The notes under the pieces were generated by a model. That model made no database searches, was not told the DNA's origin, and saw only the letters and a program-made list of their open reading frames with translations. The translations under genes were made by a program, and so were the position numbers. 64,000 nucleotides of DNA, from IMG/VR virus record IMGVR_UViG_3300009378_000006; one strand, 5' to 3'. Shown piece by piece: positions 9,901 to 61,336 of this stretch. This DNA is from an uncultured virus (IMG/VR IMGVR_UViG_3300009378_000006). Taxonomy: Duplodnaviria > Heunggongvirae > Uroviricota > Caudoviricetes. The stretch's first letter is position 1. Every line of letters begins with the position of its first letter.

Positions 9901-12755
9901 TCGAGGACTTCATTCGGAGGCAGGTGGTCACTCCCGAGAAGGCACGCTACATCCTGCCCATCACCGCAGCGGAGATGACGGGAGGCCTTGCCAGCCTCGG
10001 TGTAGGCGCCGGCGTGGGCACGCTCGGCGCAGCGGCCCAGTACCGGAAGGGCGTCTCCCTTGAGCGGGAGTTCCGAGGCAGGCTGCGCAAGGACCGGGAG
10101 AAGCGTGGGTCTGGCGAATTCGTTTTGGACTTCTCCCCAGAAAACGCCCCTACTACGGGTCCAATTTTGGAAACCCAACTGGACAAGTTGGGGGCGGAGC
10201 AGGTCGGACTGGAGAAGACGGCGCTCAACGAGCGGCTGCTTGTACGCGTCTTGGGGAGGGAACTGGAGCGGCATGGGATCACTGCGCGGCGAGCCCTCGC
10301 AGAGTACAACTACGGGTTTGGGAAGCAGGATCTCCCTGTCGCGCTTGCACGTCAGATCGACGAGCTCGCGGGCGCCGTAAAACCGCACACACCTTCTCGC
10401 TGGAGACAGGGCGTGGCGCCCTCCCGCGATGCGGCGGCCAGGAGGGGCGTGCTCCTTGGGCGGAAGGGGAGATCCCCGCGGTCCCTCACCCCCATGCAAG
10501 AGGCCGAGCGGCAGGGGACAGAGCGCCTCATCCTGTCTGGGCGGCATGGGGAACCGGAGATCATCCCAGGCGGCGGGCCCGGGTCTCGCATGCTTTGGGC
10601 ATCCCCGGAGTCTGTAGTGATCAAGGGACTGGATGCGAAAAGAGGCCAATGGGCGTATCGTGGTCACCAGCCGTCACCAAGCCCTGCGCCTCCTGGGTCT
10701 CGTTGGGTCACCGGACATTCTGAGGTCGCCAGGAACTACGCTGGGTCCCTGCCTGCAGGGGAGAAGGGGCTGGGGGATGTCTATTTCGCAGTCTATGACC
10801 CGAGAAGGATCAGAGACAAGGGCCCATGGACGAGGCATGAGGGTTTGGACGTCCGAAACCTCCCCCTAGTCTCCCGCCTGCTACATCGCATCAATACAGC
10901 GCTCGGGAGGTCCCGGAAGAACTTCGGAAGCGAGGTTGGGTGGTCCCCTTACTACGAGAGGGTGGTGCATGGCGGACAACTCGCCGATGCGCAAGTGGCC
11001 TCGTACAAACAGCTGCCGAGTGGGAACTTCATGCGGGTGAGGGGCACCCACCCGTTCCCGGGTGCCGAGGAGCTAATCAGTAAGGCGGAAACGCCGAAAT
11101 GGTCCCTGTGGGACAGGTTCTGGGGGGGCCCCGTACGGAGAGAGGCCAAAGAGCTTCAGAGGAGGCTGATACAACTCCGACTTGGTGGGGGCCTGTCTGC
11201 GTCCCAGAAGGCGCGCGCGGACAAGCTGACGCCAGTTCTGGGGCATTTCAGTCATGTGCATGACGTACCGGGTGTGACTCGCCTGAAGAAGCCGATGGAC
11301 GAGGTAGTGAGCTCTGCACGGAAGAAGGTGCTGACGCTCGGTCTAGTTGGGCGGCGCGGGGCGCAGACCCCCCTGGAGGGTCACAACGCATACCTCAAGA
11401 ACTTGGATAACCTCTTCCACAAAAACAAACTGGCCAAGTTGGGTGAGTACGCGCCAGGGCTGCCCAACAAGAAGAAGCGCACCGACCCCCCGAAGCTGAC
11501 CAGCCCGCAGACGATGGAGTTCGTCACCCAGCTGCATCACGCGCACAAGGCGGGGCCGCACATCGACCTGCGCATCGGCGACACCAAGTCGGGGATCGCC
11601 CATTCCTGGGCGCTGCCGAAGGTCATCGTGCCGCAGCCCGGGGAGAGGGTCCTGGCCGTGCAGCAGCCGGACCACACCCTGCGCTACATGGACTTCCGTG
11701 GGCTCATCGGCAAGGGGTACGGGGCGGGGACCGTGAAGGCCGTGGACCGGCTCCAGACCGAGGTGCACCACTCCGAGCCGGGGAAGCTGAAGTTCCGCCT
11801 GGACCGCGGACGCGGGGACGAGGAGTTCATCTTGCGGCGCACAGGCAAGGGCGACCAGAGCACGAAGTGGCTCCTGCAGAACGTCACCAAGACCGCCGCG
11901 GCCATGGAGGAGCACGTGGCCTCCTCCAGCGAGCAGGTCCTGGCGACCGTGCGCGAGCGGGTGAAGCTGGCGGCCGCGGACCCCGTCATCCCGACCCCGC
12001 GGCACCTCGAGATGGCCGAGGAGATCGTCACCGGCGACAGTCTGTCGCAGGACGACTGGGGCACGTTCCGACAACGACTGCAACGGAGCCCTGGCTATCG
12101 GCAGGCGGTTCTGCTACACCCCCAGGCCGACGCCAAGCTGAAGAGGCACGTGCGGGCCATGGGGGCTCTGCACGAGGGAACCCACCTAAAAAAGGTGCAG
12201 TCGCTGAGCGGGCCCCAGAAGTACCAGCTGAAGCTGATGTCTTCTGGGCGCCTGGGCTGCACCTGCCCAGACTGGCGATACCGCAAGTCGCACGGTGGGG
12301 GCGACTGCAAGCACGTTCGGGCGTTCCGGTCGGCCTACGACGCAGGTGAGATGCCGCGGGGCTACAAGGGACTGGAGAACGCCCTGAAGAAGACATCCGC
12401 CGTGGTCTCCTCCAAGGTCATCCAGCAGTCGCTCGACGAGCTGCCGAGGCTCTTGCAGAGCGCCGTGAAGAACTACCCCCAGCAGACCATCCGGTCCGCG
12501 GAGGTAGTCGCTCAGGCGCCGGCGTGGATCCGCGCGCTGATGCCGCAGGGGCTGCGCCGCCAGGTGGGGTCGGCCGGGTGGACCGCGGACATCATGACGA
12601 AGGGGGCGCCCTCGCCCACGGAGCTCATGGCCAAGCGGATGTCGGCGCAGTTCGACCAGCGTGCGACGAAGAGCCTGCGGGACGCCTACCAGGCTGCCCT
12701 GATGCGGAACCCCAACCTCAGCATCCCAGACAGCGTCCGCCGGATGGGCTTCTAG
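6951..12755 (+). CDS. 1934-aa polyvalent polyprotein: MPFKS leader, 2 ART-like modules, inorganic pyrophosphatase-like domain, helical repeats, LigD 3'-phosphoesterase domain, SWIM finger
   Basis: InPase motifs (ENKRG, YGEVRRTMGPDGDPVDVFVG, YDEDKCMLGF); LigD-PE motifs (QLHHA, HIDLR, SWALPK, LAVQQPDH, GYGAGTV); SWIM CTCPDWRYR...CKH; duplicated EKTALNERLL modules. Confidence 0.85.
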   Translation: MPFKSEAQRRKFYAMAARGEISEETLKEWQDSTGDKELPEKVGKEKTALNERLLARAFGKELERHGLKAGEVLDELIHNYGKVEIPKRLRKGIVGFAIKTSPDVRAGLDPLAGYFKATRMVTRLPLDHPARNVDAARKRFVDMAEKRYWERAAAEAKRGRETMLSGRHQGAGAAVPKVPSTVSEEGAVLGGTTYNPDAIGYKGSRALSTLGGSGPGERWITAHPDVAAGYARRPSRFAAEARISAHDLSRAKDWTGGWTPHIARPLAEGEVGAQSPEALKALLGEAEAGILRRKGNFWGRSPTYEGVATADDLARSLLAEYKQLPGGGYMRVRGAPVLGEWSAAAPQVKVSHVKEAKQVRLGPPPKRNRKQWPYQGTINFRGLDILVENKRGTDRVWTDENSNETGRTRMHHHYGEVRRTMGPDGDPVDVFVGPDAGSDVVYIVHQMKRPKYKEYDEDKCMLGFRTAKEAKAAYLKHYDNPKFFGSMTTMSFDDFAKLLRRRDVRGKRITEALIKVGAQLFFPSVKTASTVRELFREEMSKTGAAQGEEKLASSEYVVPERQFRPGGLVGDFAAGMDPTGTWTTGLSKRTESRYPTGGAKARHAAGYGAAVTGGLVGGGVLLPGTVSGILGAARGVAQTGGGAGQRALGAARGFTKGFAAPFKGLARGARLHRWMRGVHKGGQPMHVPERMVRDVADTAKGVTFGSLFRGKGGAPNNLLHDVGSKMRAGGEYSLDDIASFLHSKGYGPEQITSYMKQRGMSPEHIGHAMERVKGLSPEQTGAWLRQKGVSEEVVSNYLTSRGLAPSFVTDALTARGVTPANAQKVWGELQKVTNPQQAAKMLEAHGLTPEQAAQILRQRGATLEGVGQHMSAKGLDVAAQTRRLEQFGVTPERAGKVFQAMEGATPERAAQILRDSGVSPENIVKVLAERGVGQRAATFAVERLGVSRDAASRLFANIHKITPEAAAKRLQQEIGNQKLTRGQIEDFIRRQVVTPEKARYILPITAAEMTGGLASLGVGAGVGTLGAAAQYRKGVSLEREFRGRLRKDREKRGSGEFVLDFSPENAPTTGPILETQLDKLGAEQVGLEKTALNERLLVRVLGRELERHGITARRALAEYNYGFGKQDLPVALARQIDELAGAVKPHTPSRWRQGVAPSRDAAARRGVLLGRKGRSPRSLTPMQEAERQGTERLILSGRHGEPEIIPGGGPGSRMLWASPESVVIKGLDAKRGQWAYRGHQPSPSPAPPGSRWVTGHSEVARNYAGSLPAGEKGLGDVYFAVYDPRRIRDKGPWTRHEGLDVRNLPLVSRLLHRINTALGRSRKNFGSEVGWSPYYERVVHGGQLADAQVASYKQLPSGNFMRVRGTHPFPGAEELISKAETPKWSLWDRFWGGPVRREAKELQRRLIQLRLGGGLSASQKARADKLTPVLGHFSHVHDVPGVTRLKKPMDEVVSSARKKVLTLGLVGRRGAQTPLEGHNAYLKNLDNLFHKNKLAKLGEYAPGLPNKKKRTDPPKLTSPQTMEFVTQLHHAHKAGPHIDLRIGDTKSGIAHSWALPKVIVPQPGERVLAVQQPDHTLRYMDFRGLIGKGYGAGTVKAVDRLQTEVHHSEPGKLKFRLDRGRGDEEFILRRTGKGDQSTKWLLQNVTKTAAAMEEHVASSSEQVLATVRERVKLAAADPVIPTPRHLEMAEEIVTGDSLSQDDWGTFRQRLQRSPGYRQAVLLHPQADAKLKRHVRAMGALHEGTHLKKVQSLSGPQKYQLKLMSSGRLGCTCPDWRYRKSHGGGDCKHVRAFRSAYDAGEMPRGYKGLENALKKTSAVVSSKVIQQSLDELPRLLQSAVKNYPQQTIRSAEVVAQAPAWIRALMPQGLRRQVGSAGWTADIMTKGAPSPTELMAKRMSAQFDQRATKSLRDAYQAALMRNPNLSIPDSVRRMGF
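9141..9945 (+). repeat. Degenerate ~14-aa tandem helical repeats (G-h-[ST]-P-E-x4-h-L) within the polyprotein
   Basis: KGYGPEQI, RGMSPEHI, KGLSPEQT, KGVSEEVV, RGVTPANA, HGLTPEQA, FGVTPERA, EGATPERA, SGVSPENI. Confidence 0.75.
12034..12048. promoter_or_regulatory. Palindrome GCGACAGWCTGTCGC copy 1
   Basis: GCGACAGTCTGTCGC, perfect. Confidence 0.8.
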
Positions 12756-13394: not shown

Positions 13395-13834
13395 CTGCCC
13401 CTCCTCCGTTTGGACGTTGAACTTCTTCCGAAGCCACCGCCTCGTCGCGAGGGCACTGGCCGTTTGTCCCATGGGGTGTAGTTGGTTCCTCCGCCGCCCC
13501 GGTACTTGATGTGCAGGGTGGCAGTGATGGCCAGGGGAGTGATCTCCACCGACCGGGGTTCGACATCGTTCAGCCTGGCCCACTGGGTGACCAGGTCCTT
13601 CACGTAGCGGTCGCTTCCGTCCTCGAGGGGGTGCTGCAGCTGGAAGGTGACCGTGGCGAGGTCCTTGCGGGTCGGGTCCTCGCTGATGCTGGAGCTGAGC
13701 AGGTTGCCGCAGGCCCTGTGCAGGGACCCGTAGAGCGCCTCGACCCACTCCAGCCTCTGGGCTAATAGACGGTCGACGGGCGGCCCCGGGGAATCCCCGG
13801 AGCCACCCGCACCCTTGTTCGGTCCGTCAGCCAT
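13391..13834 (-). CDS. Hypothetical protein
   Basis: Coupled to both neighbours; start MADGPNK chosen from the overlap. Confidence 0.55.
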   Translation of the reverse strand: MADGPNKGAGGSGDSPGPPVDRLLAQRLEWVEALYGSLHRACGNLLSSSISEDPTRKDLATVTFQLQHPLEDGSDRYVKDLVTQWARLNDVEPRSVEITPLAITATLHIKYRGGGGTNYTPWDKRPVPSRRGGGFGRSSTSKRRRGR

Positions 13835-14213
13835 CGTCCCGGCAGAGCCGGAGGAACGGGCGACCCCCACCCCTCGGCTTGACCTCCTCGACCAGCGCCT
13901 TGCGGCCGAGCAGGCTCACGCCCTCGAGCCCGGCCTTCTTCCGCGCCTCGCGGACCAGGGCCTGCAGCTCCGTGGCGTTGGGGCAGGGAGCCTGCTGCCC
14001 CAGACGCTTGTCGATGACGCGGATGCGGCCCTGGTTGACAGAGCCGTCGTCCATCCGGTGGATGTAGGTCAGGTCGACCTCGATGCGGGGCAGGTAGGTG
14101 ATGACGATCCCTCCCTTGTCCTGGTTCTTCTGGGGACGGAAGAAGGGCTGGATGGACGTCAGTTCGACCTCGAACGCGGTGGGACCACTCTCAGCTTGCG
14201 GCATGTTGTGCAC
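13827..14213 (-). CDS. Hypothetical protein
   Basis: SD GAGGAG; genome-typical codon use. Confidence 0.6.
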   Translation of the reverse strand: MHNMPQAESGPTAFEVELTSIQPFFRPQKNQDKGGIVITYLPRIEVDLTYIHRMDDGSVNQGRIRVIDKRLGQQAPCPNATELQALVREARKKAGLEGVSLLGRKALVEEVKPRGGGRPFLRLCRDDG

Positions 14214-14251
14214 CTCCTCTAGGCATAGCTGTTGGCTCCCTTATGCCCATT

Positions 14252-15136
14252 TCAGTCCAGATCTTCCCTCTCGCCGAGGGCCCATTCCAGCGCGTCGATC
14301 CGTCCCTGGAGGTTGTTGATGTCGGCGGTGAAGGCGACCACGCGGCCCGCGTTGGCGCCGTCGTTGACGATGTCCTGGATGGTGGTGGGCTTGTCGCGGT
14401 TCACCTCCATCATGGCCTCCTGCCGGGCGGTCATCTCACCGAGCTGCCCCTTCAGCTGCTTGACCGTCTTCTTGCCCGACTTGCGGCCGGTCTGCTGACG
14501 TACCTGCTGGCGCTTCTTGGTGACGTCGCCCTTCTTGCGGCCCTTCTTCTTCTCCTGCGTGTGGGCGTCGGCCGCCTGCTTCTGCTCCTCCGGGGGCTTC
14601 TGGGAGTAGTCGTAGGCGGCGTCGATGGAGACGTCCCCCTTGTGGACGCTGTCCATCAGCTCGGAGGTGGCATCCTTCTTCAGCTTCATCAGCCGCTGCA
14701 CGTGCCGGGTGGAGACACCCAGAGTCGTGGCGATCTCCGCCGGCGACATGCCGAAGCGCGCGAGGGTCTCGCAGGCCACGCACATCTCGGCGGGGGTGTA
14801 CGCCTTGCGGTCGACGTCCAGGACGATGCCGGCGATGTTGGCGTCGCGGCGGGAGCCCTGGAGGCTGTAGTAGGGGACGCCGTCGGGGAAGCGAGCGGCG
14901 AAGTCGTCGGGGTGGTCGGTGGAGAGCATCTCGAGGGCGAGGTAGCGGCGCATGCCGTCGGCCAGGTAGGCGTCGCCCTTGTCGTCGAACCAGATGCCGA
15001 GGGGATCGGAGAGTCCTTGCGTCTTGATCCGGAAGGAGAGACCCTCCACGTCACCGAAGTCCCTCCTGGGATTCTCGATGACCTCGGGGTCCACGATGAT
15101 GGCGTCGAACGGGATGACAGGTTGCTTGTCGGTCAT
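14252..15136 (-). CDS. ParB/Srx N-terminal domain protein with HTH
   Basis: NPRRDF..VEGL...I...GL..PL, LADGMRRYLAL (ParB box), HTH GMSPAEIATTLGVSTRHVQR, C-terminal coiled coil. Confidence 0.85.
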   Translation of the reverse strand: MTDKQPVIPFDAIIVDPEVIENPRRDFGDVEGLSFRIKTQGLSDPLGIWFDDKGDAYLADGMRRYLALEMLSTDHPDDFAARFPDGVPYYSLQGSRRDANIAGIVLDVDRKAYTPAEMCVACETLARFGMSPAEIATTLGVSTRHVQRLMKLKKDATSELMDSVHKGDVSIDAAYDYSQKPPEEQKQAADAHTQEKKKGRKKGDVTKKRQQVRQQTGRKSGKKTVKQLKGQLGEMTARQEAMMEVNRDKPTTIQDIVNDGANAGRVVAFTADINNLQGRIDALEWALGEREDLD

Positions 15137-15192
15137 GGTCTCCTCTGTATGGTAAGGTTGCCTGTACCCAGATTTGTTGACAAGGAGGCTGT

Positions 15193-18100
15193 GTGCATCA
15201 GCCACTGTTTCATTCCCCAGGGCTGGCCCGGGTAGGTGTGAGTCGGGACGAGGCCCTCGCCCGAAGGGAAGAGGTACACGACCCGGAGTCCATGGTCTAC
15301 GCCCGGCCCTCGGACTTCACCGAGTACGCCATCCGCGTGGTCGACCAGAAGGCCAACAAGGTCGTCCCCTTCTCGTACAAGGAGCGTCGCTACCTCCGAC
15401 GGATCTACGACACAGGGGCCAAGCGCGTCCTGCTGAAGTGTGGCCGGCAGGTCGAGAAGACGCTGCACAAGTGTTCAGTAGTCACGACGGTGTCCGGTGC
15501 CCCGAAGACGATGGAGGACATCGAGGTAGGTGACCGAGTCATTGGCTTGGCTCCCGACGGGGCTCACACCGCCACGGGGGAAGTCACCTGGAAGTCTGAG
15601 GAGTACTCCAAGCCCTGCGTCCGGATGCGGACCCGACAGGGGCACGAGATCATCATCGCACTTACACACCCTATGCGGACGTGGGGATCTTGGACGGAGG
15701 GCTCTGATCTGCGTGTTGGTACCAGGCTGGCCGTGGCAAGGCAGGCCGGGTTCTTCACGTGCCGAGGAGGGTCTGTCCTCAAGGACGAGTGGGTGGCTCT
15801 CGCTGGGGCGATGATTGCGGAGGGGGGTTGTGGTGGAAGCAGCTCCCCGAACTTCACGCAGAACGAGGGGGCACTGCTCGACGACGTCCTCGACGCCTGC
15901 GTTCAGCTGGAGATTCCCTACAACCCGCACGAGAAGACGGACAGTGACGGCAGCTGGGTCCTGACGTTCGTTCAGCCTGAGCCTGGCGTGGACAACCCGG
16001 TCACGACCAAGCTGAAGCAGTGGGGGCTGTATGGCACCACCTCCCACACCAAGTTCGTTCCGGACTTCGTCTACGAGCTGTCCCCCGGCCAGACGGCCCT
16101 CTTCCTCAACCGCCTCTGGGCCGGCGATGGGCACTGCAGCCTGCAGGACTCCTCGTACCACATCGAGTACGACACCGTATCCGAGCGGCTGGCGCGGGAT
16201 GTTCAACGCCTCCTCTGGAAATTCGGCATCCCCACCAGCTTCCGAAGGTGGAAGCCGAAGTTGTACTTGGGGACCGACAAGTGGGCCTACAAGCTCCGCG
16301 TCGAGACGCAGGAGGGCGCCCGTAGATTCGTCGAGCACATAGGCGCGCTGAGCAAGACCGAGCACCTCCCCCTGTTGGGCGTTGACGAGAACAGCAACCG
16401 CGACACGTACCCGATGGAGATTGCGGAGGACATCAAAGCCATCCACCGCTCCCGCGAGGGCTACGCTCGTCGAGGTCGGTGGGTGCCCCAGCCCTCTCTC
16501 CGCTCGGCCGGTCTGCGCGAGAAGCCCAAGTACTCTCCCAGCAAGGCGAAGCTGCGGGAGTACGTCGAGTTCTTCCGGGCCGATGCTCGCTTCGACCAGG
16601 AGGCAGTGGACGAGCTCGAGGCCCACCTGGACACGGATCTGTTCTGGGATGAGGTCGTTGAGTACGTGGAGATTGGGGAGCAGCCCTGCTACGACATCAC
16701 GGTGGCTGCTACGGACAGCTTCATCGCCGATGGGTTCATCACCCACAACAGCACCATGCTCGGCAACCGGATGCTGTCGATGTGCTGCCTCAACACAGGC
16801 TTCAAGTGCCTGTACGTGTCCCCCACCCACTCCCAGACGAACACGTTCAGCCGCGACAGACTGTCGGATCCCATCACGCTGTCGCCGATCCTGTCGTCCT
16901 GGACGACGACCAAACTCACCGACAACATCCACCTCAAGAAGTTCATCAACCACAGCAACATCACCCTGCGCTACGCGTACCACAACGCCGACCGTACTCG
17001 AGGTATCCCCTCGGACATGGTCACCATCGACGAGCTGCAGGACATCCTGATGACCAACATCCCGGTCATCGAGGAGACGGCCTCCCACTCCCCCTGGGGC
17101 ATCTTCGTCTACTCGGGCACCCCGAAGACGACGGACAACCCCATGGAGCACTACTGGGTCTACTACTCGCGGCAGAACGAGTGGATGGTCCCGTGCGAGC
17201 GCCACGGCCTCCCCCGGCGGCCGGCCAGCTGGCACTGGAACATCCTGGGCGAGCGCAACATCGGCAAGCACGGCCCCATCTGCGACAAGTGCGGCGAGAC
17301 CATCGACCCGATGCACCCCAAGGCGCACTGGCGGTCGCTCAACCCCAAGCCCGACATCCCCGAGCCGTTCGAGGGCTTCCGCATCCCGCAGCTGATGGTG
17401 CCCTGGATCGGGTGGACCGACATCCTCCAGAAGCAGAAGTTCTACGGCCGGGCCCAGTTCTACAACGAGGTCCTGGGCCTGAGCTACGACTCGGGGACCC
17501 GCCCCATCACGCGCAGGCACCTGCGAGCGCTGTGCAACCCCGAGCTGTCGATGTCGCGGGAGGGGCTGGAGAAGGTCCGGGAGAACATGGGCGGTGCCCG
17601 GGTCTTCATGGGCGTCGACTGGACCGGCGGGAGCAACAAGAGCTTCACGGTCGCCACCCTGGGGGCGTACCTCCCGGGGAGCCGGAAGTTCACCTACTTC
17701 TACGTGCACAGGTTCGAGGGCCAGGAGTCGGAGCCAGAGACCCAGCTCGAGCTCCTCAAGCAGCTCATCCGCAACTGGAACGTCGACGTCGTGGGTGTGG
17801 ACTTCGGCGGCGGCTACTGGCCGAACAACGAGCTCATCAAGACCTTCGGCCCCCAGCGGGTCATCAAGTGGCAGTACAGCCAGCCCAACGAGAAGTGGCG
17901 GTGGGACGCGGGCCAGCAGCGGTACATGGTGAATCGCACGGCCGTGATGACCGACTTCTTCAACGCGCTGAAGCACGCCGACCGCCAGATCTTCGAGCTC
18001 CCCAAGTGGGAGGAGTTCCGTGAGCCCTACGCCACGGACTTCACCAACATCTTCAGCGAGTACAACGAGTCCCTCCGGCTCGACGAGTACAAGCTGGCCC

Positions 18101-18204
18101 CAGAGATGACGGACGACACCTGCCACTCCGCCCTCCTGTGCCTGCTGGCCTCCACCCTCCGGATCCCCCGCCTCGACATCTTCGCCGTACAGCAGGAAAC
18201 ATAG
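15193..18204 (+). CDS. terL: Terminase large subunit (GpA-like), interrupted by an intein
   Basis: Spliced Walker A region KCGRQVEK/STMLG; Walker B VTIDELQD; YSGTPK; nuclease FMGVDW and DDTCHS; SD AAGGAGG. Confidence 0.9.
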   Translation: MHQPLFHSPGLARVGVSRDEALARREEVHDPESMVYARPSDFTEYAIRVVDQKANKVVPFSYKERRYLRRIYDTGAKRVLLKCGRQVEKTLHKCSVVTTVSGAPKTMEDIEVGDRVIGLAPDGAHTATGEVTWKSEEYSKPCVRMRTRQGHEIIIALTHPMRTWGSWTEGSDLRVGTRLAVARQAGFFTCRGGSVLKDEWVALAGAMIAEGGCGGSSSPNFTQNEGALLDDVLDACVQLEIPYNPHEKTDSDGSWVLTFVQPEPGVDNPVTTKLKQWGLYGTTSHTKFVPDFVYELSPGQTALFLNRLWAGDGHCSLQDSSYHIEYDTVSERLARDVQRLLWKFGIPTSFRRWKPKLYLGTDKWAYKLRVETQEGARRFVEHIGALSKTEHLPLLGVDENSNRDTYPMEIAEDIKAIHRSREGYARRGRWVPQPSLRSAGLREKPKYSPSKAKLREYVEFFRADARFDQEAVDELEAHLDTDLFWDEVVEYVEIGEQPCYDITVAATDSFIADGFITHNSTMLGNRMLSMCCLNTGFKCLYVSPTHSQTNTFSRDRLSDPITLSPILSSWTTTKLTDNIHLKKFINHSNITLRYAYHNADRTRGIPSDMVTIDELQDILMTNIPVIEETASHSPWGIFVYSGTPKTTDNPMEHYWVYYSRQNEWMVPCERHGLPRRPASWHWNILGERNIGKHGPICDKCGETIDPMHPKAHWRSLNPKPDIPEPFEGFRIPQLMVPWIGWTDILQKQKFYGRAQFYNEVLGLSYDSGTRPITRRHLRALCNPELSMSREGLEKVRENMGGARVFMGVDWTGGSNKSFTVATLGAYLPGSRKFTYFYVHRFEGQESEPETQLELLKQLIRNWNVDVVGVDFGGGYWPNNELIKTFGPQRVIKWQYSQPNEKWRWDAGQQRYMVNRTAVMTDFFNALKHADRQIFELPKWEEFREPYATDFTNIFSEYNESLRLDEYKLAPEMTDDTCHSALLCLLASTLRIPRLDIFAVQQET
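15460..16749 (+). mobile_element. Intein (430 aa) with LAGLIDADG homing endonuclease
   Basis: Begins TLHKCSVVTT, has IEVGDRV, LAGAMIAEGG and FLNRLWAGDG, ends CYDITV...FIADGFITHN followed by Ser+1. Confidence 0.9.
16853..16867. promoter_or_regulatory. Palindrome copy 2
   Basis: GCGACAGACTGTCGG (14/15). Confidence 0.75.
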
Positions 18205-18212
18205 GGCTACGA

Positions 18213-18242: not shown

Positions 18243-18266
18243 CACCCACGCGAGGTAGCGGGGGTA

Positions 18267-19056: not shown

Positions 19057-19752
19057 TCAGGTGCGGTTTTTGCGGATGATGGCGAGGACGTCGCCCTTGG
19101 GGTCCACGTTGGGGGTGCTGAGCGCCAGGAAGCGGTCGCGGATGGCCTCGTCCCGGTAGGTCTCGATGTAGATGATGACGGCACCCCGGAGGTGCTTGCG
19201 GCAGAACTCCAGGCGGCTGTGGAGCTTCTGGGCGTCGAGGTCGGTCTTGTAGTCGGGCTGCCCACGCACCAGGGCTTGCAGCTCGAGGCAGAGCTTGAGG
19301 AACGTCAGCTCCGGCGTGTCCTCCTTCGTCGCCTCGTGGATGGCGTGGAACACCGTTTCGTCCAGCCGGGGGAAGAGCTCCACCCACCGAGCGGCCTCCT
19401 CGACGGAGGGGTGTAGCGTAGCGCGGTTCGCCATCTCCAGCATGGCCACGCACTCCTCCGCGTCCAGCTGGAGCGGGGGGAGGGTGATCTCGTGGATCTC
19501 GGTGAGCAGCCGGAGGTTGGACTCGAGCCGCAGGACGCGCCTCTGCAGGTCCAGGAGGGTCTTGCGGTTGAGGAGCGACCCGGTGTGGGCGTCGCGGTCG
19601 GCCGCCAGCTCCATGACCTCGTCGCGGAGGAGCATGGTGTACCGGCCCTGGGTGAAGCGGGTGAGCATCGAGCGGCCGATGTAGGTTTCCACCGTGCGGA
19701 CGGAGACTCCGAGCAAGGTGGCGGCCTCCTTCTTGGTCAGCATTTCGGGCAT
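19057..19752 (-). CDS. HTH (excisionase/MerR-like) DNA-binding protein
   Basis: MLTKKEAATLLGVSVRTVETYIGRSML followed by a coiled coil. Confidence 0.8.
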   Translation of the reverse strand: MPEMLTKKEAATLLGVSVRTVETYIGRSMLTRFTQGRYTMLLRDEVMELAADRDAHTGSLLNRKTLLDLQRRVLRLESNLRLLTEIHEITLPPLQLDAEECVAMLEMANRATLHPSVEEAARWVELFPRLDETVFHAIHEATKEDTPELTFLKLCLELQALVRGQPDYKTDLDAQKLHSRLEFCRKHLRGAVIIYIETYRDEAIRDRFLALSTPNVDPKGDVLAIIRKNRT

Positions 19753-21645: not shown

Positions 21646-23367
21646 ATGCTCAAGCTGCTGCACTACGCGGGGGAGGACGAGAGCGGCCCCCGCTCGCACA
21701 TCATCACCCCGGGAGAGCCGGAGCTGGTCAAGACAGCTGCGCCGCTCCACCACGAGGTGCAGCAGTTCATCGCCCACCTGAAGCCGCGTGACGGCAAGAC
21801 CTACGCCCTGGTCAACGCCCTGGGGGCCACCGAGCTGTACGGCCCCAACATCAACGCCGACGGCTTCTCCATCGACGCGCTGAGGTACAAGCCCGACGGC
21901 TGGGACGACATCCCTCCGTGGGAGGTGGAGGCCCGCCGCGCACTTGCGGCGAAGGCCCCCTACGGGTTCACCACCTTCTACGACGCCGGGGCCTTCCGCC
22001 ACCACAAGAACAAGCCCTACGCCCCCCACAACCACCCGCAGTACGGCGTCGTCGACCTGGCCGTCTGGCACGAGGCGATGCGCCGGGTGGAGCTGGTGGT
22101 CGCGCTGGACCACGACCTGTGCCGCAAGGCCGGTGGCTGGGACATCGTCGAGAAGCTCGAGGCCGGGGAGTACCTCCCGGTCTCCATGGGCTGCCGCGTC
22201 AAGTACGACACGTGCTCCCTCTGTGGCCAGAAGTCGAAGACCCGCAACGACTACTGCCACCACATGAACAAGCAGGACCCGCGGTTCAAGCCGAACCTCA
22301 TCCTGCCGGACGGCCGCCAGATCTTCGTCTGGAACCCGTACCCCCGGTTCTTCGACATCTCCTTCGTGCTCATCGGCGCCGACAAGACCGCCAAGGTGAT
22401 GGGCCTGCTGTCCTCCGGGAAGCAGTCCTTCATCTCGGTCCCGCCACAGTCGTTGTCCGACCGCTCGGCAGACCGCGCGGCCGACCTCGGCTACACTGAC
22501 GGGGCCGTGGAGAAGGTGGCCAGCCCCGAAGAGGAACTGCTGGCCCTCCTCCAGGAAGACGAGATGGAGAAGGTCGCCCACCAGAAGGTCGCCGTCGAGC
22601 AGAAGCTCGCCGACATCATCAAGGAGCTGCCGCCCGACCGCGCGGCCGGGAAGGCGATGCCCCTGCTGGAGCGGGTCGAGCCCGACATCCCCAGCGGCAT
22701 CCTCGACTCCCTCTCCAAGCCCCGAGGCTCCGTCGCAGACGACCTCGGCAGCATCGCTGCAACTGCCGGGAAGCTGGGCATCGTGCTCAAGCCCCGGGAG
22801 TTCCAACATCTCGTGCTGTCCCGTTGCGGAAACGGGGCACTCGCCAACGAACTGGGCGCCAGGAATCAGGTGTTCAGCCCGTGCTTGGGGACGAGCCCGT
22901 TCTCGATGGGGTCGCCCCTCCCAGACCTGCACAGGCTGCTGCATCCGTTCCTCGCGACGAGGTCGATGATGGGGGCGCCGCTGAAGAAGCGGATCACCAT
23001 CGTCATCTCCGTCACCCCTCCGCCACCTCGGAACGAGGTGCGCTCCACGATGCCCCTGCTGGACGAGATCTCTCGGTCCTACAACGGGTACCGTCACTCC
23101 CTCCTGCGGTTCCTGGCGGGAGGGGGGTGCGACAGTCTGTCGCATCTCCACCAGGAAGCCAGCGACCCGCTGGCCAAGTTGTTCACAAGAAACCCTGTTG
23201 CCATTACCGACGATTCGCTGGCAGGATTGTTTTCGTTGGGGCCTCTGATGTACTTGCTTCGCGCGTACTGGGACGCCACGAAGCACCTGGGTCCCGAGGT
23301 CAGTCAGCGAATTGCTGCAGAAAACCCAGGGCTGGTTGCCAAACTGGCGTATGCCAACCCAGCGTGA
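21646..23367 (+). CDS. Prohead (capsid maturation) protease with a Zn-binding insertion and C-terminal extension
   Basis: N.NADGF, FRHHKN, VSMGC.V.YD.CS.CG, and FFDISFVLIGADKTAKV (like the ExSxVxxPA motif of HK97-type proteases); lies upstream of scaffold and capsid genes. Confidence 0.7.
   Translation: MLKLLHYAGEDESGPRSHIITPGEPELVKTAAPLHHEVQQFIAHLKPRDGKTYALVNALGATELYGPNINADGFSIDALRYKPDGWDDIPPWEVEARRALAAKAPYGFTTFYDAGAFRHHKNKPYAPHNHPQYGVVDLAVWHEAMRRVELVVALDHDLCRKAGGWDIVEKLEAGEYLPVSMGCRVKYDTCSLCGQKSKTRNDYCHHMNKQDPRFKPNLILPDGRQIFVWNPYPRFFDISFVLIGADKTAKVMGLLSSGKQSFISVPPQSLSDRSADRAADLGYTDGAVEKVASPEEELLALLQEDEMEKVAHQKVAVEQKLADIIKELPPDRAAGKAMPLLERVEPDIPSGILDSLSKPRGSVADDLGSIAATAGKLGIVLKPREFQHLVLSRCGNGALANELGARNQVFSPCLGTSPFSMGSPLPDLHRLLHPFLATRSMMGAPLKKRITIVISVTPPPPRNEVRSTMPLLDEISRSYNGYRHSLLRFLAGGGCDSLSHLHQEASDPLAKLFTRNPVAITDDSLAGLFSLGPLMYLLRAYWDATKHLGPEVSQRIAAENPGLVAKLAYANPA
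23129..23143. promoter_or_regulatory. Palindrome copy 3
   Basis: GCGACAGTCTGTCGC, extends to 17 bp with T/A flanks. Confidence 0.8.
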
Positions 23368-23379
23368 GGAGAAGCCAAC

Positions 23380-24057
23380 ATGTCCGGAATGAACCAGTTC
23401 CTCGCAGAGGCCTACGGCACGGCCGCACCGACGCAGGAGCCCAGTGAGCAGGAGAAGGTCGCCGCGGCCTACGAGTTCCTGGACAAGCTGGCCTCCGCCG
23501 ACGGCATCGACATCCGTCAGCTCAACGACGCGGACGTCGAGAAGGTCGCCAACTTCTACTTCGCCAAGCTCGCCGAGGAGGAGGCCGCGGAAGCCGCCCC
23601 CGCCGAGGAGAAGAAGGAGGAGAAGAAGGAGGAGAAGGAGGACAAGGGCGAGGTCCCGCCCCAGTTCACCGACCCCGAGAAGCAGGCCATGGCCGAGATG
23701 GGGGAGGCCGACTTCCTCGGTCGGCAGATGGCCCACGCCTTCGTCAACGAGCTGGACACCATCCAGAAGACCGCCATGGCGGCGCAAGCCGAGGCTCCCG
23801 CCGAGCCGGCGGCCGAGCAGCCCGCCGAGATCCCCGAGGCCCTGCTGAAGGTCGCCGAGGCGCGCGCCCTGGAGTTCCTGCAGCAGAAGGTCGCCGAGGG
23901 CAAGCTGTGCAAGTGCGGTGACCCCGCCTGCGACGGCGCGGCCTGCGCGAGCAACAAGGACGAGACCAAGGAGGCCTCCGCCGACCAGAGCCAGGTCGAC
24001 GCCATCGCGGCGCAGATGCTGGCCCAGTCCGGCTACGGTCACCTGCTCGAGGGCTAG
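23380..24057 (+). CDS. Acidic scaffold/core protein, KxA-rich
   Basis: EKVAA, DKLAS, EKVAN, AKLAE, EKQA, AFVNELDTIQKTA, KEAS. Confidence 0.7.
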   Translation: MSGMNQFLAEAYGTAAPTQEPSEQEKVAAAYEFLDKLASADGIDIRQLNDADVEKVANFYFAKLAEEEAAEAAPAEEKKEEKKEEKEDKGEVPPQFTDPEKQAMAEMGEADFLGRQMAHAFVNELDTIQKTAMAAQAEAPAEPAAEQPAEIPEALLKVAEARALEFLQQKVAEGKLCKCGDPACDGAACASNKDETKEASADQSQVDAIAAQMLAQSGYGHLLEG

Positions 24058-29030: not shown

Positions 29031-29522
29031 ATGGGTGACCGCACCAACATCTACAACCTGACGGACGTGACGCCGCGGCCCACGCCGCTGAAGATCTTCC
29101 GGCAGTTCATCGCCCCCGGCGGGAAGATGATCGTCCCGGTGTCCAAGCTGCGGACGCGCTCGGTGCAGAAGCGCCTGGCGCGGATGCAGGAGAACCGGGC
29201 CATCTTCGTCGGGACCGCGCCGCCGGCGTGGTACGTCGCCGCCAAGAAGGCGGCCAAGACCGAGCGCCGGCAGGCCCAGGCCTACAAGCCCCCGGCCGCG
29301 GAGCCGACCCCCGAGCCCGAGCCCGCGACAGTCTGTCGCGACGATGTCATGAAGGTCCTGCGCAAGCGGACCAAGGGCGACATCGAGGCCCTGGCGGAGC
29401 TCCTCGACCGGCCGGACGTCACCACGGACATGACCAAGGCCGAGATGCTCACCTCCCTCGAGGCGGGCATGGACGAGGTCATGCCGCTGACGGCCCCGCT
29501 GGAGAAGTACCTGGAGGGCTGA
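29031..29522 (+). CDS. Hypothetical protein with a possible HeH/Rho-N-like C-terminus
   Basis: TKGDIEALAE...MTKAEML. Confidence 0.6.
   Translation: MGDRTNIYNLTDVTPRPTPLKIFRQFIAPGGKMIVPVSKLRTRSVQKRLARMQENRAIFVGTAPPAWYVAAKKAAKTERRQAQAYKPPAAEPTPEPEPATVCRDDVMKVLRKRTKGDIEALAELLDRPDVTTDMTKAEMLTSLEAGMDEVMPLTAPLEKYLEG
29325..29339. promoter_or_regulatory. Palindrome copy 4
   Basis: GCGACAGTCTGTCGC, 17 bp with C/G flanks. Confidence 0.8.
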
Positions 29523-30012: not shown

Positions 30013-30583
30013 CCTGGTAGGCCGGGCCCTCCTCAAGCTGGCCGAGGACCCCCGGTGGTCCTCCGGCTCTCTCCCGGTGCGTGCAACGGCCCCCGGTGGG
30101 GCAGCGCAGACGAGAGCCCGAGCCACTCAGCAGGCGCAGCAGAAGGCGCAGCTCGCTGCCGGCCAGAAGAAGGAAGCCCAAGCTCCCGCTGCCGCCGAGG
30201 CGGTGCTGAACGCCTGGGCCCGCCTCCCTGCCGCGGCGAAGGGCGCGATCATCGGCGCCCCCATCGGCGCCGTGACCACCGGCAGCGGCGAGATGCTGCT
30301 CAACCGACAGCTCGACGACGGCAGCACGCCTCAGCAGCACATGTACGGGTCGCTGGCCGAGCGTGCCCGGGCGGTGCGGGACGCCTCGGACAACCCGGGG
30401 CTCATGAAGAAGCTGCTGGCCGAGACCGGCGGCCACGCCGAGAACCTGGCCGGCATCACGGCGGAGCACCCCGTCAAGTCGGCCCTCATCGCGGCACTAC
30501 TCGGAGGCGCACTCGGCGCTGGAGTAGGCGCCGGCTCTGGAGCTACACTCAGGATGCTGCCTCGGGCAGCAGCTGCGAGGTGA
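29993..30583 (+). CDS. Gly-zipper cargo-like protein
   Basis: MRISADSLVGRALLKLAE leader; GAIIGAPIGA and ALLGGALGAGVGAG. Confidence 0.6.
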   Translation: MRISADSLVGRALLKLAEDPRWSSGSLPVRATAPGGAAQTRARATQQAQQKAQLAAGQKKEAQAPAAAEAVLNAWARLPAAAKGAIIGAPIGAVTTGSGEMLLNRQLDDGSTPQQHMYGSLAERARAVRDASDNPGLMKKLLAETGGHAENLAGITAEHPVKSALIAALLGGALGAGVGAGSGATLRMLPRAAAAR

Positions 30584-34000: not shown

Positions 34001-34443
34001 AGCCCTCGATGGCCGCCTTCCACGATGAGCTGAGCCGCATCCTCTCCTTGGAGAAGGTGGCGGACCAGCACGAGGACGACAGTCTGTCGCCGGACGAGCC
34101 GCTGCCCCGCGAGGCCCCGTCGGGTGCCTACGAGTTCGCGCGCTACGGCATCGCGGAGCCCCTGGTGCGGGTGGGCCTGCCCGCCGCCCTCGGGACAGGC
34201 GCGGGCTACCTCGCCGGCGGCGGCATGTACCATGCGCTGCGCAACGCGCCGCACCTGGGTCCGTGGTTCCAGTCCCTGCCGCACCAGAACGTCGTCTCGG
34301 GCGGGCTGAAGGCGGCCGTGGGCCTCGGCGGGCTGCTGACCGGGCTGGGCCTGGCGTGGAAGCGCCACCAGCTCTACAACGAGATCGAGCGTGCCCAGAT
34401 GGAGCGGCGCGCCAAGATGGAGGAGGCTCTAGGTGAGGGGTAG
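33997..34443 (+). CDS. Small cargo-like membrane protein with AFxDEL...EKVA leader
   Basis: MKPSMAAFHDELSRILSLEKVAD; two Gly-rich hydrophobic helices. Confidence 0.65.
   Translation: MKPSMAAFHDELSRILSLEKVADQHEDDSLSPDEPLPREAPSGAYEFARYGIAEPLVRVGLPAALGTGAGYLAGGGMYHALRNAPHLGPWFQSLPHQNVVSGGLKAAVGLGGLLTGLGLAWKRHQLYNEIERAQMERRAKMEEALGEG
34076..34090. promoter_or_regulatory. Palindrome copy 5
   Basis: ACGACAGTCTGTCGC (14/15). Confidence 0.75.
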
Positions 34444-49020: not shown

Positions 49021-50127
49021 ATGCTGGAGAAGCAGGCAGAGGCCGACCGCCGAGCAGCGGTCTGCTTGATGGCTGACTCCGCTGGCCGCGTGCTGGCGAG
49101 GGACTTCTCCGACTCCACCCTCGCGGACTCCGTCCTCCTCGAGAAGATGTCCTCGGCGCAGGCCGAGGCTCTCGCGACAGTCTGTCGCACCAAGCTGGCT
49201 GCCGGCATCGAGCCCACCGAGCTGGAGAAGCAGGCCTTCGTCGGCTCGCTCTCCGGTTCCCTGGCCGTCGGCAAGCACATGATGCGCGGTGCAGGACGAG
49301 GGTGGGGTGAGGGGTTCAAGCTCACCACCAAGCTCCGCAACATGCTCGGTGGGGCGTCCAAGGCACGCACCAGCGCCGTCAAGGCGGTGGAGCGCGGTGA
49401 GAGGCAGGCCCTCGACGCCGGCCTGAGCCGGAGTGCCTGGAAGAACGTCTCCCCCGTCACGAAGACCCCCATGGTGGCCTCACCCGCCAGGGTGCCTCAT
49501 GCGAGGCCTCCGGCCAAGGCACCGGCAGCTCCTGCCTCCTCAGCGAAGCCTCCCGCGGCTCCGGCCGCGGCAGCGAAGGAAGCCCCCACCCCGCTCATGC
49601 AGGGAACCCTGGGTGCTGGAGCTCGCGGTGCTGGTTGGGGCGGCCTGGGTGGTGCTGGCGTGGGTGCCGCAGGTGGTGCCGCCGTCGGCGCCGGGACCGC
49701 CGAGGAAGGACATCGCCTGCGCGGTGCCCTCGTCGGTGGAGCCCTCGGCGCCACAGGCGGTGCAGCCCTCGGAGCTACCGGAGGCGCGGCCATCGGCATG
49801 GGGCGGCAGATGAGCCGCAACGCCGCAGGTGCCGCAGCCAAGGGTGGCCAGCAGGCAGGTCAGCAGGCGGCCCAGAAGGGAACCCAGCAGGCCGCTCAGG
49901 CGACGGAGGCCGCGGTGCCCCAGAACCTGAGCACCGAGGTCGCCGGCGACGTGGCCAAGAAGGGGCTGAGCCCGATGCACTACGGTCTCGGGGCCCTGGG
50001 CCTCGGCGCGGCCGGCACCGGCGCCTACTTCGCAGGCCGGGGCTACCTCAACCGCCGCAAGCAGCTCCAGCAGGGCGTCCAGCAGTACCCGCAGCCGATG
50101 ATGGCTCCCCCGGCACATTACAGCTAA
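49021..50127 (+). CDS. Gly-zipper cargo-like protein with EKQA motifs
   Basis: LEKQA x2, EKMSS, KLAAG; long GxxxG runs. Confidence 0.7.
   Translation: MLEKQAEADRRAAVCLMADSAGRVLARDFSDSTLADSVLLEKMSSAQAEALATVCRTKLAAGIEPTELEKQAFVGSLSGSLAVGKHMMRGAGRGWGEGFKLTTKLRNMLGGASKARTSAVKAVERGERQALDAGLSRSAWKNVSPVTKTPMVASPARVPHARPPAKAPAAPASSAKPPAAPAAAAKEAPTPLMQGTLGAGARGAGWGGLGGAGVGAAGGAAVGAGTAEEGHRLRGALVGGALGATGGAALGATGGAAIGMGRQMSRNAAGAAAKGGQQAGQQAAQKGTQQAAQATEAAVPQNLSTEVAGDVAKKGLSPMHYGLGALGLGAAGTGAYFAGRGYLNRRKQLQQGVQQYPQPMMAPPAHYS
49174..49188. promoter_or_regulatory. Palindrome copy 6
   Basis: GCGACAGTCTGTCGC, perfect. Confidence 0.8.
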
Positions 50128-50936: not shown

Positions 50937-50944
50937 GTCTCTCC

Positions 50945-61225: not shown

Positions 61226-61321
61226 TGCCGTACCTCCTTGGCTGTTTGCAGCTACGTTCGAGTCTCTTATCCCCGAAACCCTCGCATATTTGATTACGCG
61301 CGAAGGGCACTTTGCGGGGTC

Positions 61322-61336
61322 GCGACAGACTGTCGC
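61322..61336. promoter_or_regulatory. Palindrome copy 7 (intergenic, divergent promoter region)
   Basis: GCGACAGACTGTCGC, 17 bp with C/G flanks. Confidence 0.8.

Follow-up and report, generated by a model that had tools for sequence, protein, structure and literature searches.

Dispersed copies of a 13-bp palindrome in a large marine phage are candidate docking sites for an orphan ParB-like protein

Why should one perfect palindrome recur, base for base, in unrelated genes of a phage? The window analyzed here, 64,000 nt of an uncultured member of the Caudoviricetes (IMG/VR IMGVR_UViG_3300009378_000006), comes from a ~200-kb marine phage in which such a palindrome returns at intervals of 5 to 15 kb, no two copies lying closer than ~5 kb. 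We recovered all seven copies listed in the preliminary description, with cores beginning at 12035, 16854, 23130, 29326, 34077, 49175 and 61323 (Table 1). The 13-bp core, CGACAGWCTGTCG, was exact in 7/7 copies, as had been claimed, but the 15-bp form under which the copies were announced, GCGACAGWCTGTCGC, was exact in only five, with one flank mismatch each at 16853 and 34076. The recomputed spacings (4819, 6276, 6196, 4751, 15098 and 12148) and the reading frames (GDSLS, RDRLS, CDSLS, ATVCR, DDSLS and ATVCR) agreed with those first given. Six of the seven copies lie inside genes. The seventh is, as described, the only intergenic copy and occupies a promoter-type gap between divergent genes, 98 nt from the start of the AAA_5 gene, which is most likely a GTG preceded by AAGGAGG. 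This placement is conserved in the complete relative G012 (201,921 bp), which carries its own variant of the motif 95 nt upstream of the AAA_5 orthologue (G012:87639).

Table 1. Palindrome copies and neighboring genes in the 64,000-nt window; G003 coordinates refer to relative B.
Feature	Coordinates	Strand	Remarks
Palindrome copy 1 (CGACAGTCTGTCG)	12035..12047	.	Inside gene for 1934-aa giant protein, frame G-D-S-L-S; kept in relative B (G003:14164)
Small gene just downstream of parB	13827..14213	-	128 aa; possible partner
Orphan ParB/Noc/KorB-like protein, proposed binder	14252..15136	-	294 aa, counted from a Met that relatives share; ORF to 15205
Large terminase with intein	15193..18204	+	Divergently adjacent to parB
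Palindrome copy 2, central A	16854..16866	.	Within large terminase gene, R-D-R-L-S, rare Arg codon AGA; kept in relative B (G003:18945)
HTH_17 protein	19057..19752	-	231 aa; disfavored as binder
Palindrome copy 3	23130..23142	.	Close to 3' end of 573-aa gene, C-D-S-L-S; kept in relative B
Palindrome copy 4	29326..29338	.	Within 163-aa gene, A-T-V-C-R; kept in relative B (G003:32351)
Palindrome copy 5	34077..34089	.	ORF 33478-34443 (+), D-D-S-L-S; kept in relative B (G003:37950)
Palindrome copy 6	49175..49187	.	Gene 49021-50127 (+), A-T-V-C-R
Palindrome copy 7	61323..61335	.	Intergenic, 226-bp gap between AAA_5 operon (start 61225, -) and + gene (start 61452), divergent

We compared the count with a Markov background. 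With the palindrome sites masked during training, models of order 1 to 4 gave expectations of 0.0073 down to 0.0001 copies, so the seven observed are far above background at every order. In 100 dinucleotide shuffles of the window, the core averaged 0.01 copies and never exceeded 1. Near-identical records extended the array to 11 sites in a 104-kb composite, of which the core is the commonest 13-mer. The sites were also more evenly spaced than chance, the probability of a minimum gap at least as large as that observed being 1.3e-3 for the composite and 4.6e-4 for G012.

The preliminary description held that the copies force rare codons and that selection acts on the DNA itself. The codons at the coding copies do make up just 2-11% of their synonymous sets; in the phage's long genes, AGT accounts for 3.1% of Ser codons, AGA for 2.1% of Arg, ACA for 3.9% of Thr and TGT for 11% of Cys. 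In relative B, at 86.1% flank identity, 8/8 sites and 96/96 specified bases were kept (P ~6e-7), with a single central T/A flip among the eight shared sites. Both observations uphold the proposal and, as judged from sequence, they show purifying selection on the palindrome sites. Individual sites, by the same kind of comparison, are dispensable: relative L059 (88% identity) had 3 substitutions at the window-12035 site, and relative B had one site that the phage is without.

Other relatives carried altered versions of the motif. In the syntenic relative G007, whose proteins are 37-71% identical to those of the phage, the symmetric variant GGACAGNCTGTCC occurred 3 times in 49 kb, and in G012 the symmetric variant CGACACWGTGTCG occurred 15 times, giving three site specificities among syntenic relatives with terminases 71-73% identical. 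At positions orthologous to the mapped coding sites, we found the motif at 0/5 in G012 and 0/4 in G007; opposite copy 2, G007 had a degenerate form of the site with the amino acids RDRL conserved. Certain switched variants nonetheless share places with the phage sites. The G007 variant GGACAGWCTGTCC at G007:6-18 occupies the codons of the 573-aa gene that hold copy 3 in the phage, G012 has its variant upstream of AAA_5, and each of the three lineages has its own version in the convergent gap that follows a conserved 663-aa gene.

That both half-sites change symmetrically points to a dimeric reader, and this bears on whether the copies might instead be cis-acting DNA signals with no ParB-type binder, such as dispersed origins, packaging-series sites, or cleavage or nick sites. 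Even spacing would be compatible with multiple origins or processing sites as well, and PMC11780129 describes nicks that accompany motifs and are dispersed along phage genomes. The nick motifs described there, of the T5 and tf types, are asymmetric, lie on one strand only and cluster toward one genome end, whereas the present motif is a perfect palindrome, identical on both strands, at which nicks on both strands would therefore cut the genome. Moreover, in the assembled contigs on which the analysis was based, we saw neither an AT-rich unwinding element nor an iteron cluster beside the sites. Binder-free signals of this kind are in our estimation quite improbable.

The central base was always A or T, at 11/11 sites in the phage and 15/15 in G012, and an A:T pair in this place is symmetric by nature. 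Read on the sense strand, it was T at about six sites and A at three in the phage, and A at six and T at four in G012. This absence of a sense-strand preference argues that duplex DNA is recognized, as it would be unexpected of an RNA signal. It therefore weighs against RNA-level hairpins at which transcripts are processed or the phage's own RNA polymerase pauses or terminates. The site that lies between convergent genes in each of the three lineages would suit a bidirectional hairpin terminator, and the G012 sites do extend into palindromes of 19-25 bp. However, a one-base loop is impossible, so the stem in the phage would have only 5 bp; the sites have no downstream U-run; and most copies are intragenic, where termination would harm. 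RNA hairpins would also leave the co-occurrence with a ParB gene, described below, unexplained, and we find them scarcely credible.

The preliminary description had looked to co-occurrence of the palindrome with the ParB gene in relatives as a check, and such co-occurrence was found. Of 26 terminase-anchored loci, 4 had a ParB gene, and exactly these 4 had a repeated 13-bp palindrome. De novo palindrome scans of the ParB phages returned log10P values of -28.6, -36.5 and -10.4. In G014, G015 and 160 kb of G016 there was no such palindrome, the best candidates (log10P -6 to -11) being short and codon-like. A ParB profile search gave a clear match in G012 and none in G014-G016; in G013 it picked up a single marginal frame of 80 aa (E 0.0094). 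The palindrome was confined to ParB-bearing lineages and absent from three complete ParB-less relatives. Because the phages with ParB all belong to a single clade, the co-occurrence amounts essentially to one evolutionary event.

The recognition helix of the ParB-like protein reads STRHVQRL in both the phage and relative B, which have the same motif, and it differs along with the motif in G007 (STRHVRRW) and G012 (DVRTVQRA). KorB contacts bases partly outside its recognition helix, so we take this covariation as suggestive only. We also considered that a host protein, such as a nucleoid-associated protein or a regulator, recognizes the sites and is exploited by the phage, the fallback named in the preliminary description. 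Three specificities exist among these syntenic relatives, each accompanied by a diverged phage ParB, and the ParB-less relatives lack any array; reading by the host would need three host switches that coincided with the presence of ParB. We rate it very improbable.

At its N terminus, the ParB-like protein has a ParB fold that includes a G-x-R-R box; an HTH, a linker rich in Lys and Arg, and C-terminal helices follow. The protein matched phrog_1033 (PHROG) at 7.6e-22; Pfam ParBc gave no match at E 0.001, and TIGR00180 gave 17.6 bits, below its cut-off of 58.45. In box II, D-G-M-R-R-Y-L-A aligns to G-E-R-R-Y-R-A of Spo0J, and G61, R63, R64 and A67 of the motif (G-x-R-R-x-x-A) showed little or no variation across 68 homologues. 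Box III reads L-D-V-D-R against E-N-L-Q-R in Spo0J, with the acidic and Asn residues replaced; in canonical ParB, the box-III acidic residue serves CTP hydrolysis. The HTH could be aligned to its counterpart in Spo0J and had a weak match to Pfam HTH_23. Modeled with a pLDDT of 92.7, the protein had as its top Foldseek matches, at probability 1.0, Noc (7nfu), ParB (7bnk) and KorB (8qa9), and the DNA-binding domains of KorB and ParB (1r71 and 6s6h) were also matched. A homodimer model scored 0.58 versus 0.16 for the best control, passing a mark reached by 20/30 solved homodimers and 1/23 single chains, although similar ParB dimers have been solved and the predictor may have reproduced those. The modeled interface involves residues 221-293 plus the N-terminal domain; runs shared 63% or more of their contacts, and the partner pLDDT was at least 76. 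As recognized by phrog_1033 and the predicted fold, the protein is a distant member of the ParB/Noc/KorB superfamily.

Two binders had been proposed in the preliminary description, this protein and the HTH protein at 19057. The latter matched Pfam HTH_17 at 2.7e-5 and had tblastn matches in 6/6 relatives tested, including the ParB-less G014, G015 and G016. Because it is conserved in 3/3 ParB-less relatives without such a palindrome, we disfavor it as the binder. The link between the sites and the ParB-like protein is the part of the proposal that was supported, on a basis that is comparative throughout: co-occurrence, symmetric motif switches with a diverging ParB, the fold and the modeled dimer.

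Several small clade-specific proteins of no assigned function share the phyletic pattern of ParB. Proteins without a family, among them those encoded at 199-666 in the window and at 13757-14215, 15018-15410 and 23098-23502 in the composite, were present in G012 and G007 and absent from G014-G016. One of these, or the HTH_17 protein with its DNA-binding motif and its location near the terminase, could be the phage factor that binds the sites, leaving ParB a bystander. We hold this to be improbable. The HTH_17 protein persists where the palindrome array does not, the remaining clade-specific proteins contain no recognizable DNA-binding domain, and ParB alone among the clade-specific proteins combines an HTH with a dimeric build suited to a 13-bp palindrome.

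We therefore favor, with a probability of roughly 70%, the reading that the palindromes are docking sites for the orphan ParB and form a KorB/Noc-like array. A ParB-type dimer would dock on the double-stranded palindrome, one HTH reading each half-site. The protein would load at each site and occupy the flanking DNA, either by NTP-gated clamping and sliding in the manner of KorB and ParB or by spreading. With sites spread along the whole ~200-kb chromosome, the array would thereby cover the entire phage genome.

The OB operators of KorB are 13-bp palindromes with a single central base, many copies of which are dispersed over the replicon. The phage resembles that system in having a ParB-family HTH protein, here the proposed reader, together with many dispersed 13-bp palindromes, and the fold match between the phage protein and KorB (8qa9) had a target-normalized TM of 0.61 and an rmsd of 4.1 A. 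KorB of the IncP plasmid RK2 is described in PMC11790492 as a CTP-dependent clamp that loads at OB, slides and acts at a distance, and that works with ParA (IncC) and a clamp-locking partner, KorA. In contrast to the KorB system, we found no ParA in the phage, 6/7 of the window sites are intragenic and the spacing is unusually even; in contrast to its plasmid, the replicon is that of a ~200-kb phage with no sign of lysogeny. Noc is a ParA-less ParB paralogue that binds many palindromes over the Bacillus chromosome, many of them intragenic, and that tethers DNA to the membrane via an N-terminal amphipathic helix. The phage ParB is likewise ParA-less and its proposed sites are dispersed and mostly intragenic, but ~10 residues precede its ParB fold and do not look like an amphipathic helix. 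Relatives scored far below the cut-off of the NCBIfam Noc model, and the window protein had no match to it.

Phage N15 has centromere sites scattered over its genome. It is a linear temperate plasmid-prophage that uses SopB, SopA and four IR centromere sites for partition, according to PMC7205306. Both are phage genomes with several separate palindromes for their own ParB-type protein, a candidate pairing in the present case, but we found no ParA, integrase or prophage copy here. The ParB activators of phage thymine dioxygenases are presented in PMC13229309 as partner-less, without an obvious DNA-binding domain and paired with a 5mYOX enzyme; our phage protein is also a partner-less ParB homologue, yet retains its HTH. 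A Tet_JBP search had no match in the phage, and its control was likewise without a match.

The preliminary description suggested genome organization, segregation or stoperator-like repression as the use of the sites. Segregation was disfavored, as we found no ParA, ParA-binding motif, integrase or prophage copies. The ParA family PF13614 was detected in 0/5 records, including complete G012, while the control was positive in 14/14 genomes, and Pfam scans of 170/201 called G012 genes and of the called genes of the window and its extensions returned no ParA family. PMC12704722 defines the motif by which the N terminus of ParB binds ParA as (L/F/I)G(K/R)G(L/F/I), and inspection of the ParB-like sequences by eye gave no instance of it. 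Among 185,579 reference genomes, the only relative was one 176-kb MAG contig. The sites are evenly dispersed, not clustered near an origin as in canonical ParABS, and plasmid-style segregation appears less likely.

Stoperators of cluster A mycobacteriophages are tens of identical short sites distributed across a phage genome, asymmetric, oriented with transcription and mostly intergenic, and a single phage protein, the temperate phage's immunity repressor, binds them all. The sites described here differ in being perfect palindromes without orientation and mostly intragenic, and this symmetry told against stoperator-like repression. The most likely purpose would be genome-wide organization or marking of the phage DNA, with control of the KorB kind at a few sites close to promoters, 61323 for instance. 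Indeed, the even genome-wide layout suggests coverage of the whole chromosome rather than a single centromere. A more specific version, possible but doubtful, is that in a virulent phage the even array loads a ParA-less ParB clamp over the whole chromosome as a self-mark or chromatin-like layer that organizes or shields replicating DNA. If that were true, the rapid divergence of site-protein specificity, with three versions in phages that share at least 71% terminase identity, would be reminiscent of plasmid incompatibility groups and would prevent cross-talk when relatives co-infect.

In the open-access papers and preprints searched, we found no array of this kind in a non-temperate phage. 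Phages commonly encode partner-less ParBs, whose roles were left open in a recent survey of the ParB-CTPase fold (PMC12704722). The locus provides a testable case, with a defined 13-bp site, a defined protein and two natural specificity variants usable for swaps. If the binding is true, it would extend dispersed-site control of the KorB/Noc style to large phages without signs of lysogeny, and it would explain why rare codons were selected into unrelated genes.

Family searches with the product of the small gene downstream of parB gave no match, and a role as a KorA-like partner of ParB is only a guess. By BLASTP, this product matched that of the gene downstream of the G012 parB at E 2e-5, with 30% identity over 88 aa.

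The 13-bp palindrome CGACAGWCTGTCG occurs in seven exact copies in the window, compared with a mean of 0.01 and a maximum of 1 in 100 dinucleotide-preserving shuffles. The preliminary description had proposed a comparison with a Markov background, and models of orders 1 to 4, trained with the palindrome sites masked, gave an expectation of 0.0073 down to 0.0001 copies. The 15-bp form in which the palindrome was originally described holds exactly in five of the seven copies; in the other two, one flanking base is off, and no degenerate copies within 2 mismatches of the 15-mer were found in the window. Six copies do lie within genes, in the frames reported previously, and the codons that they impose are indeed rare, with AGT, AGA, ACA and TGT making up 3.1%, 2.1%, 3.9% and 11% of their synonymous sets over the long genes of this phage. 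The copy at 61323 is intergenic, as had been noted. The AAA_5 gene on one side of it most likely starts at the GTG at 61225, which is preceded by AAGGAGG and at which codon-position GC turns coding, and the plus-strand gene on the far side starts at 61452, so the site lies within a 226-bp divergent gap.

The window has a G+C content of 67% and its genes include those for a large terminase with an intein, a major capsid protein, a tail sheath, an endolysin and an orphan ParB-like protein. Two near-identical virus records overlap it: G002, with 99.9% identity across 44,108 bases, extends 29.8 kb upstream, and G001, with 99.97% identity across 52,580 bases, extends 10.5 kb downstream. CheckV completeness of these records was 32-40%, which places the genome near 185-200 kb. 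Upstream of the window are genes for a fused beta-beta' RNA polymerase (2043 aa), a family A DNA polymerase, a primase, a DnaB-like helicase and a UvsX-like recombinase. Megablast of the phage DNA against GenBank phages returned no match; the nearest named capsid relatives, Salmonella phage Arash and three Vibrio phages, were 26-29% identical. The DNA was present in 6 public runs from 2 studies of marine and seawater metagenomes (contigs; no RNA run listed).

We joined G002 and G001 into a composite of 104,373 bp, whose coordinates past the join are off from those of the window by 6 bases. Exact copies of the site number 11 in the composite, more than for any other 13-mer, and neighbouring sites are 4.8 to 15.1 kb apart. 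Among 200,000 random placements on the composite, a minimum gap as large as that observed had a frequency of 1.3e-3 and a coefficient of variation as low as that observed a frequency of 5.3e-3; the sites are therefore too evenly spread, besides being too many. A relative represented by two records, G003 and G004, shares 83-87% DNA identity with the window phage and keeps in place all 8 composite sites of the shared region. All 96 specified bases at these sites were unchanged, while flanks of 300 nt each were 86.1% identical (2066/2400); if the sites changed at the flank rate, this would have P of about 6e-7. Across the 8 sites, just one central T has become A. This relative has one extra site, where the window phage differs at 5 of 13 bases, and a 4.1-kb metagenome contig with 88% identity has 3 substitutions in the site at 12035; thus, single sites can be gained and lost.

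To follow the palindrome into distant relatives, we used 26 terminase-anchored loci. A ParB gene adjoined the terminase in 4 of them (tblastn), and a 13-bp palindrome was present at least 2 times in the same 4 only, the co-occurrence with ParB for which the preliminary description had proposed a test. In each of two further loci, a 12-bp palindrome occurred twice. A ParB-family profile run on five relatives classed as 93-100% complete matched G012 at 1.7e-99 and gave a single marginal 80-aa frame in G013 (E 0.0094) and no match in G014, G015 or G016. We also scanned for palindromes de novo (half-sites 5-7, gaps 0-4), covering the first 160 kb only of G016 and leaving out G013. The log10P value was -28.6 in the composite and -36.5 in G012, and G007, a ParB-bearing relative, reached -10.4; the ParB-less G014, G015 and G016 did no better than -6 to -11, with short palindromes of the GAAGA type.

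The motif is switched in the two distant ParB-bearing relatives. G007 (49 kb) is syntenic with the window phage, with proteins 37-71% identical, and has 2 copies of GGACAGWCTGTCC and 1 of GGACAGGCTGTCC, with about 0.006 copies expected. G012 is a complete genome of 201,921 bp in which the terminase is 73% and ParB about 29-32% identical to those of the window phage. It has 15 copies of CGACACWGTGTCG, with A or T at the centre every time; their spacing is even, with a smallest gap of 5.7 kb (P = 4.6e-4 for so large a minimum), and many extend into palindromes of 19-25 bp. In both variants the change from the window motif is symmetrical across the two half-sites. The ParB recognition helix follows the motif across lineages: it reads STRHVQRL in the window phage and in its 86% relative, which have the same motif, and STRHVRRW in G007 and DVRTVQRA in G012, where the motif is changed, a covariation based on three specificities. 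Set beside this pattern, recognition of the palindromes by a host factor seems very unlikely.

Because several small unassigned proteins are limited, like ParB, to the palindrome-bearing clade, and the clade amounts to one evolutionary gain, what these genomes offer is an association of ParB with the palindrome rather than proof. Another phage factor could on this account be the one that binds, which we regard as unlikely. The HTH_17 protein previously suggested as a second possible binder did not fare well, having homologues in all six relatives tested, including three that lack ParB, and so a distribution unlike that of the palindrome.

Some site positions are shared between lineages. All three have a site in the convergent-gene gap 3' of a conserved 663-aa gene, G007 has one in the same five codons of a 573-aa gene, and in the divergent gap upstream of AAA_5 the site stands at 95 nt in G012 versus 98 nt in the window phage. 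When coding sites of the window phage were mapped to orthologous positions, the motif was found at 0 of 5 in G012 and 0 of 4 in G007, and one G007 terminase position is a two-mismatch remnant of a site. Judged by these comparisons, coding sites outside the shared positions turn over between lineages. In crude gene calls for G012, which give 46 strand-switch points, 7 of the 15 sites are no more than 300 nt from such a point. The AAA_5 divergent gap of the window phage and G012 also has in common GTCAAC and GATTCC separated by one variable base, which may be a promoter element for the polymerase that the phage encodes.

A word-based search with the ParB-like protein found close relatives only (three proteins and a fragment, 77-86% identity), whereas an exhaustive one recovered 1052 proteins with a threshold of E 0.001 and 43 with 1e-10. 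Pfam ParBc was not called and the TIGR00180 score was far under the cut-off, but phrog_1033, the PHROG for a ParB-like partition protein, matched at 7.6e-22, and the box-II G-x-R-R motif is kept. The predicted structure (68 sequences) had a mean pLDDT of 92.7, and its best structural matches were Noc 7nfu, ParB 7bnk, 6t1f and 1vz0, and KorB 8qa9, all with probability 1.0. A two-copy model scored 0.58 versus 0.16 for the best control, a mark that 20 of 30 solved homodimers attain, but only 1 of 23 single chains; at least 63% of contacts were shared between runs, with partner pLDDT of at least 76, and the contacts are in the C-terminal helices and from one N-domain to the other. Since solved ParB dimers exist, this model shows likeness rather than proof. 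In canonical ParB, CTP hydrolysis is linked to box-III residues that this protein does not retain, and a low-confidence Lys/Arg-rich linker lies between its HTH and C-terminal helices. The small gene that follows parB has a weakly similar counterpart in G012 (30% over 88 aa, pairwise E 2e-5) and belongs to no known family, its protein atlas matches being unnamed viral clusters only; it could encode a ParB partner.

We favor, with a probability of about 0.7, the proposal that the palindromes are docking sites on duplex DNA for a dimer of the ParB-like protein. A dimer would fit because both half-sites change together symmetrically, and a symmetric duplex reader because the central A:T pair has no strand preference; that the palindromes act as RNA hairpins is barely credible beside this. 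Cis-acting origin, packaging or nick signals are improbable as well, and the nick motifs known from the excerpted text of PMC11780129 are asymmetric and on one strand only. KorB clamps DNA in a CTP-dependent manner, loading at its operators and sliding as far as 1.5 kb, by which it reaches distal promoters (PMC11790492). By analogy, the ParB-like protein would load at each palindrome and occupy its flanks, and the even spacing would leave the chromosome covered by loaded protein; its binding, nucleotide use, sliding and purpose are what we infer. A regulatory role at some sites is plausible, as two of the cross-lineage positions are intergenic, one of them between divergent operons, and the many in-gene sites fit better with a coverage role.

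Among known systems, those most like this one are KorB-OB on RK2, Noc with its binding sites, and N15 SopB with its four IR sites (PMC7205306). Unlike these, the window phage is a large phage with no ParA found and no lysogeny signs, its sites are mostly in-gene and evenly spaced, and its close relatives between them show three specificities. Many ParB-like proteins of plasmids, prophages and phages are described as orphan and long-branched in a survey of the ParB-CTPase fold, which assigns them no sites (PMC12704722). Searches of the open-access literature on phage, orphan and jumbo-phage ParB listed no paper that reports an array of this kind in a phage that is not temperate.

Segregation had been raised as a function. 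Neither ParA (PF13614) nor tyrosine integrase (PF00589) was found in G012 or four partial records, with controls that rang in 14 of 14 genomes. Pfam also detected no partition ATPase, integrase or replication initiator in 170 of the 201 called genes of G012, a scan that left out 10 genes crossing fetch boundaries and 21 others, most of which have a Pfam-scanned homologue in the window phage. Among 185,579 reference genomes, searched with two peptide patterns per query, the terminase query gave no prophage or plasmid copy and the capsid query only one 176-kb MAG contig (63% identity). Partition of a plasmid-prophage is therefore unsupported. Activation of a thymine dioxygenase by the ParB-like protein is unlikely: the ParBs that do so are without an obvious DNA-binding domain (PMC13229309), and a Tet_JBP search saw no such enzyme, with its control silent too.

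Coordinates of the palindrome and of other features in the window and related records
Feature	Location (strand)	Description
CGACAGWCTGTCG	window 12035, 16854, 23130, 29326, 34077, 49175, 61323	exact match
GAGAAGGTGGC	window 298, 2363, 6051, 20299, 22510, 34051 (+); 46644-46654 (-)	
GTCAAC-N-GATTCC element	window about 61395-61425 (-); G012:87555-87585	~70-80 nt from palindrome, AAA_5 divergent gap
Gene downstream of parB	window 13827-14213 (-); similar to G012:128744-129175	possible ParB partner
Fused RNA polymerase gene	G002:23890-30021; C-terminal end at window 1-189	Rpb2 + Rpb1 domains
Terminase gene	window 15193-18204 (+)	intein with LAGLIDADG domain at residues about 106-519
Giant protein gene	window 6951-12755 (+)	1934 aa; InPase domain and LigD-type 3'-phosphoesterase domain
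HNH endonuclease gene	window 39773-40414 (+)	directly 3' of tail sheath gene
tRNA-like gene	window 30190-30286 (-)	four-base anticodon, no amino acid assigned (ARAGORN)
Pilin-like gene	G001:58075-58728	217 aa; downstream of window; type IV pilin-like N-terminal methylation motif

Several other genes were of interest. The RNA polymerase is a single gene fusing beta-type (Rpb2) and beta-prime-type (Rpb1) domains of the multisubunit enzyme, with 64-66% identity to G007 and G012 and 41-44% to the ParB-less relatives. The intein appears to be absent from the G012 terminase, which is only 589 aa long, and the InPase part of the giant protein is in G012 a 325-aa gene of its own, adjoining an SNF2-type helicase gene. 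The HNH endonuclease gene is probably a mobile insertion, since no counterpart was found in G012, G007 or the ParB-less relatives. The tRNA-like gene occupies the gap between a gene end at 30012 and a gene start at 30587. The pilin-like gene has a spanin-like neighbour, a hint that the host is Gram-negative.

A second word, GAGAAGGTGGC, is also over-represented in the window, with 7 copies versus 0.04 expected. Its six plus-strand copies are within plus-strand genes and read E-K-V-A in frame, and the palindrome at 34077 has a copy 16 nt ahead of it. The word may be a DNA signal with an orientation, or it may reflect a peptide that recurs. It is strand-biased in relatives, with 7 forward and 0 reverse copies in G003, 2 and 4 in G012, and 0 and 5 in G007, where the orientation is inverted; the ParB-less G015 also has it, in 1 forward and 4 reverse copies.
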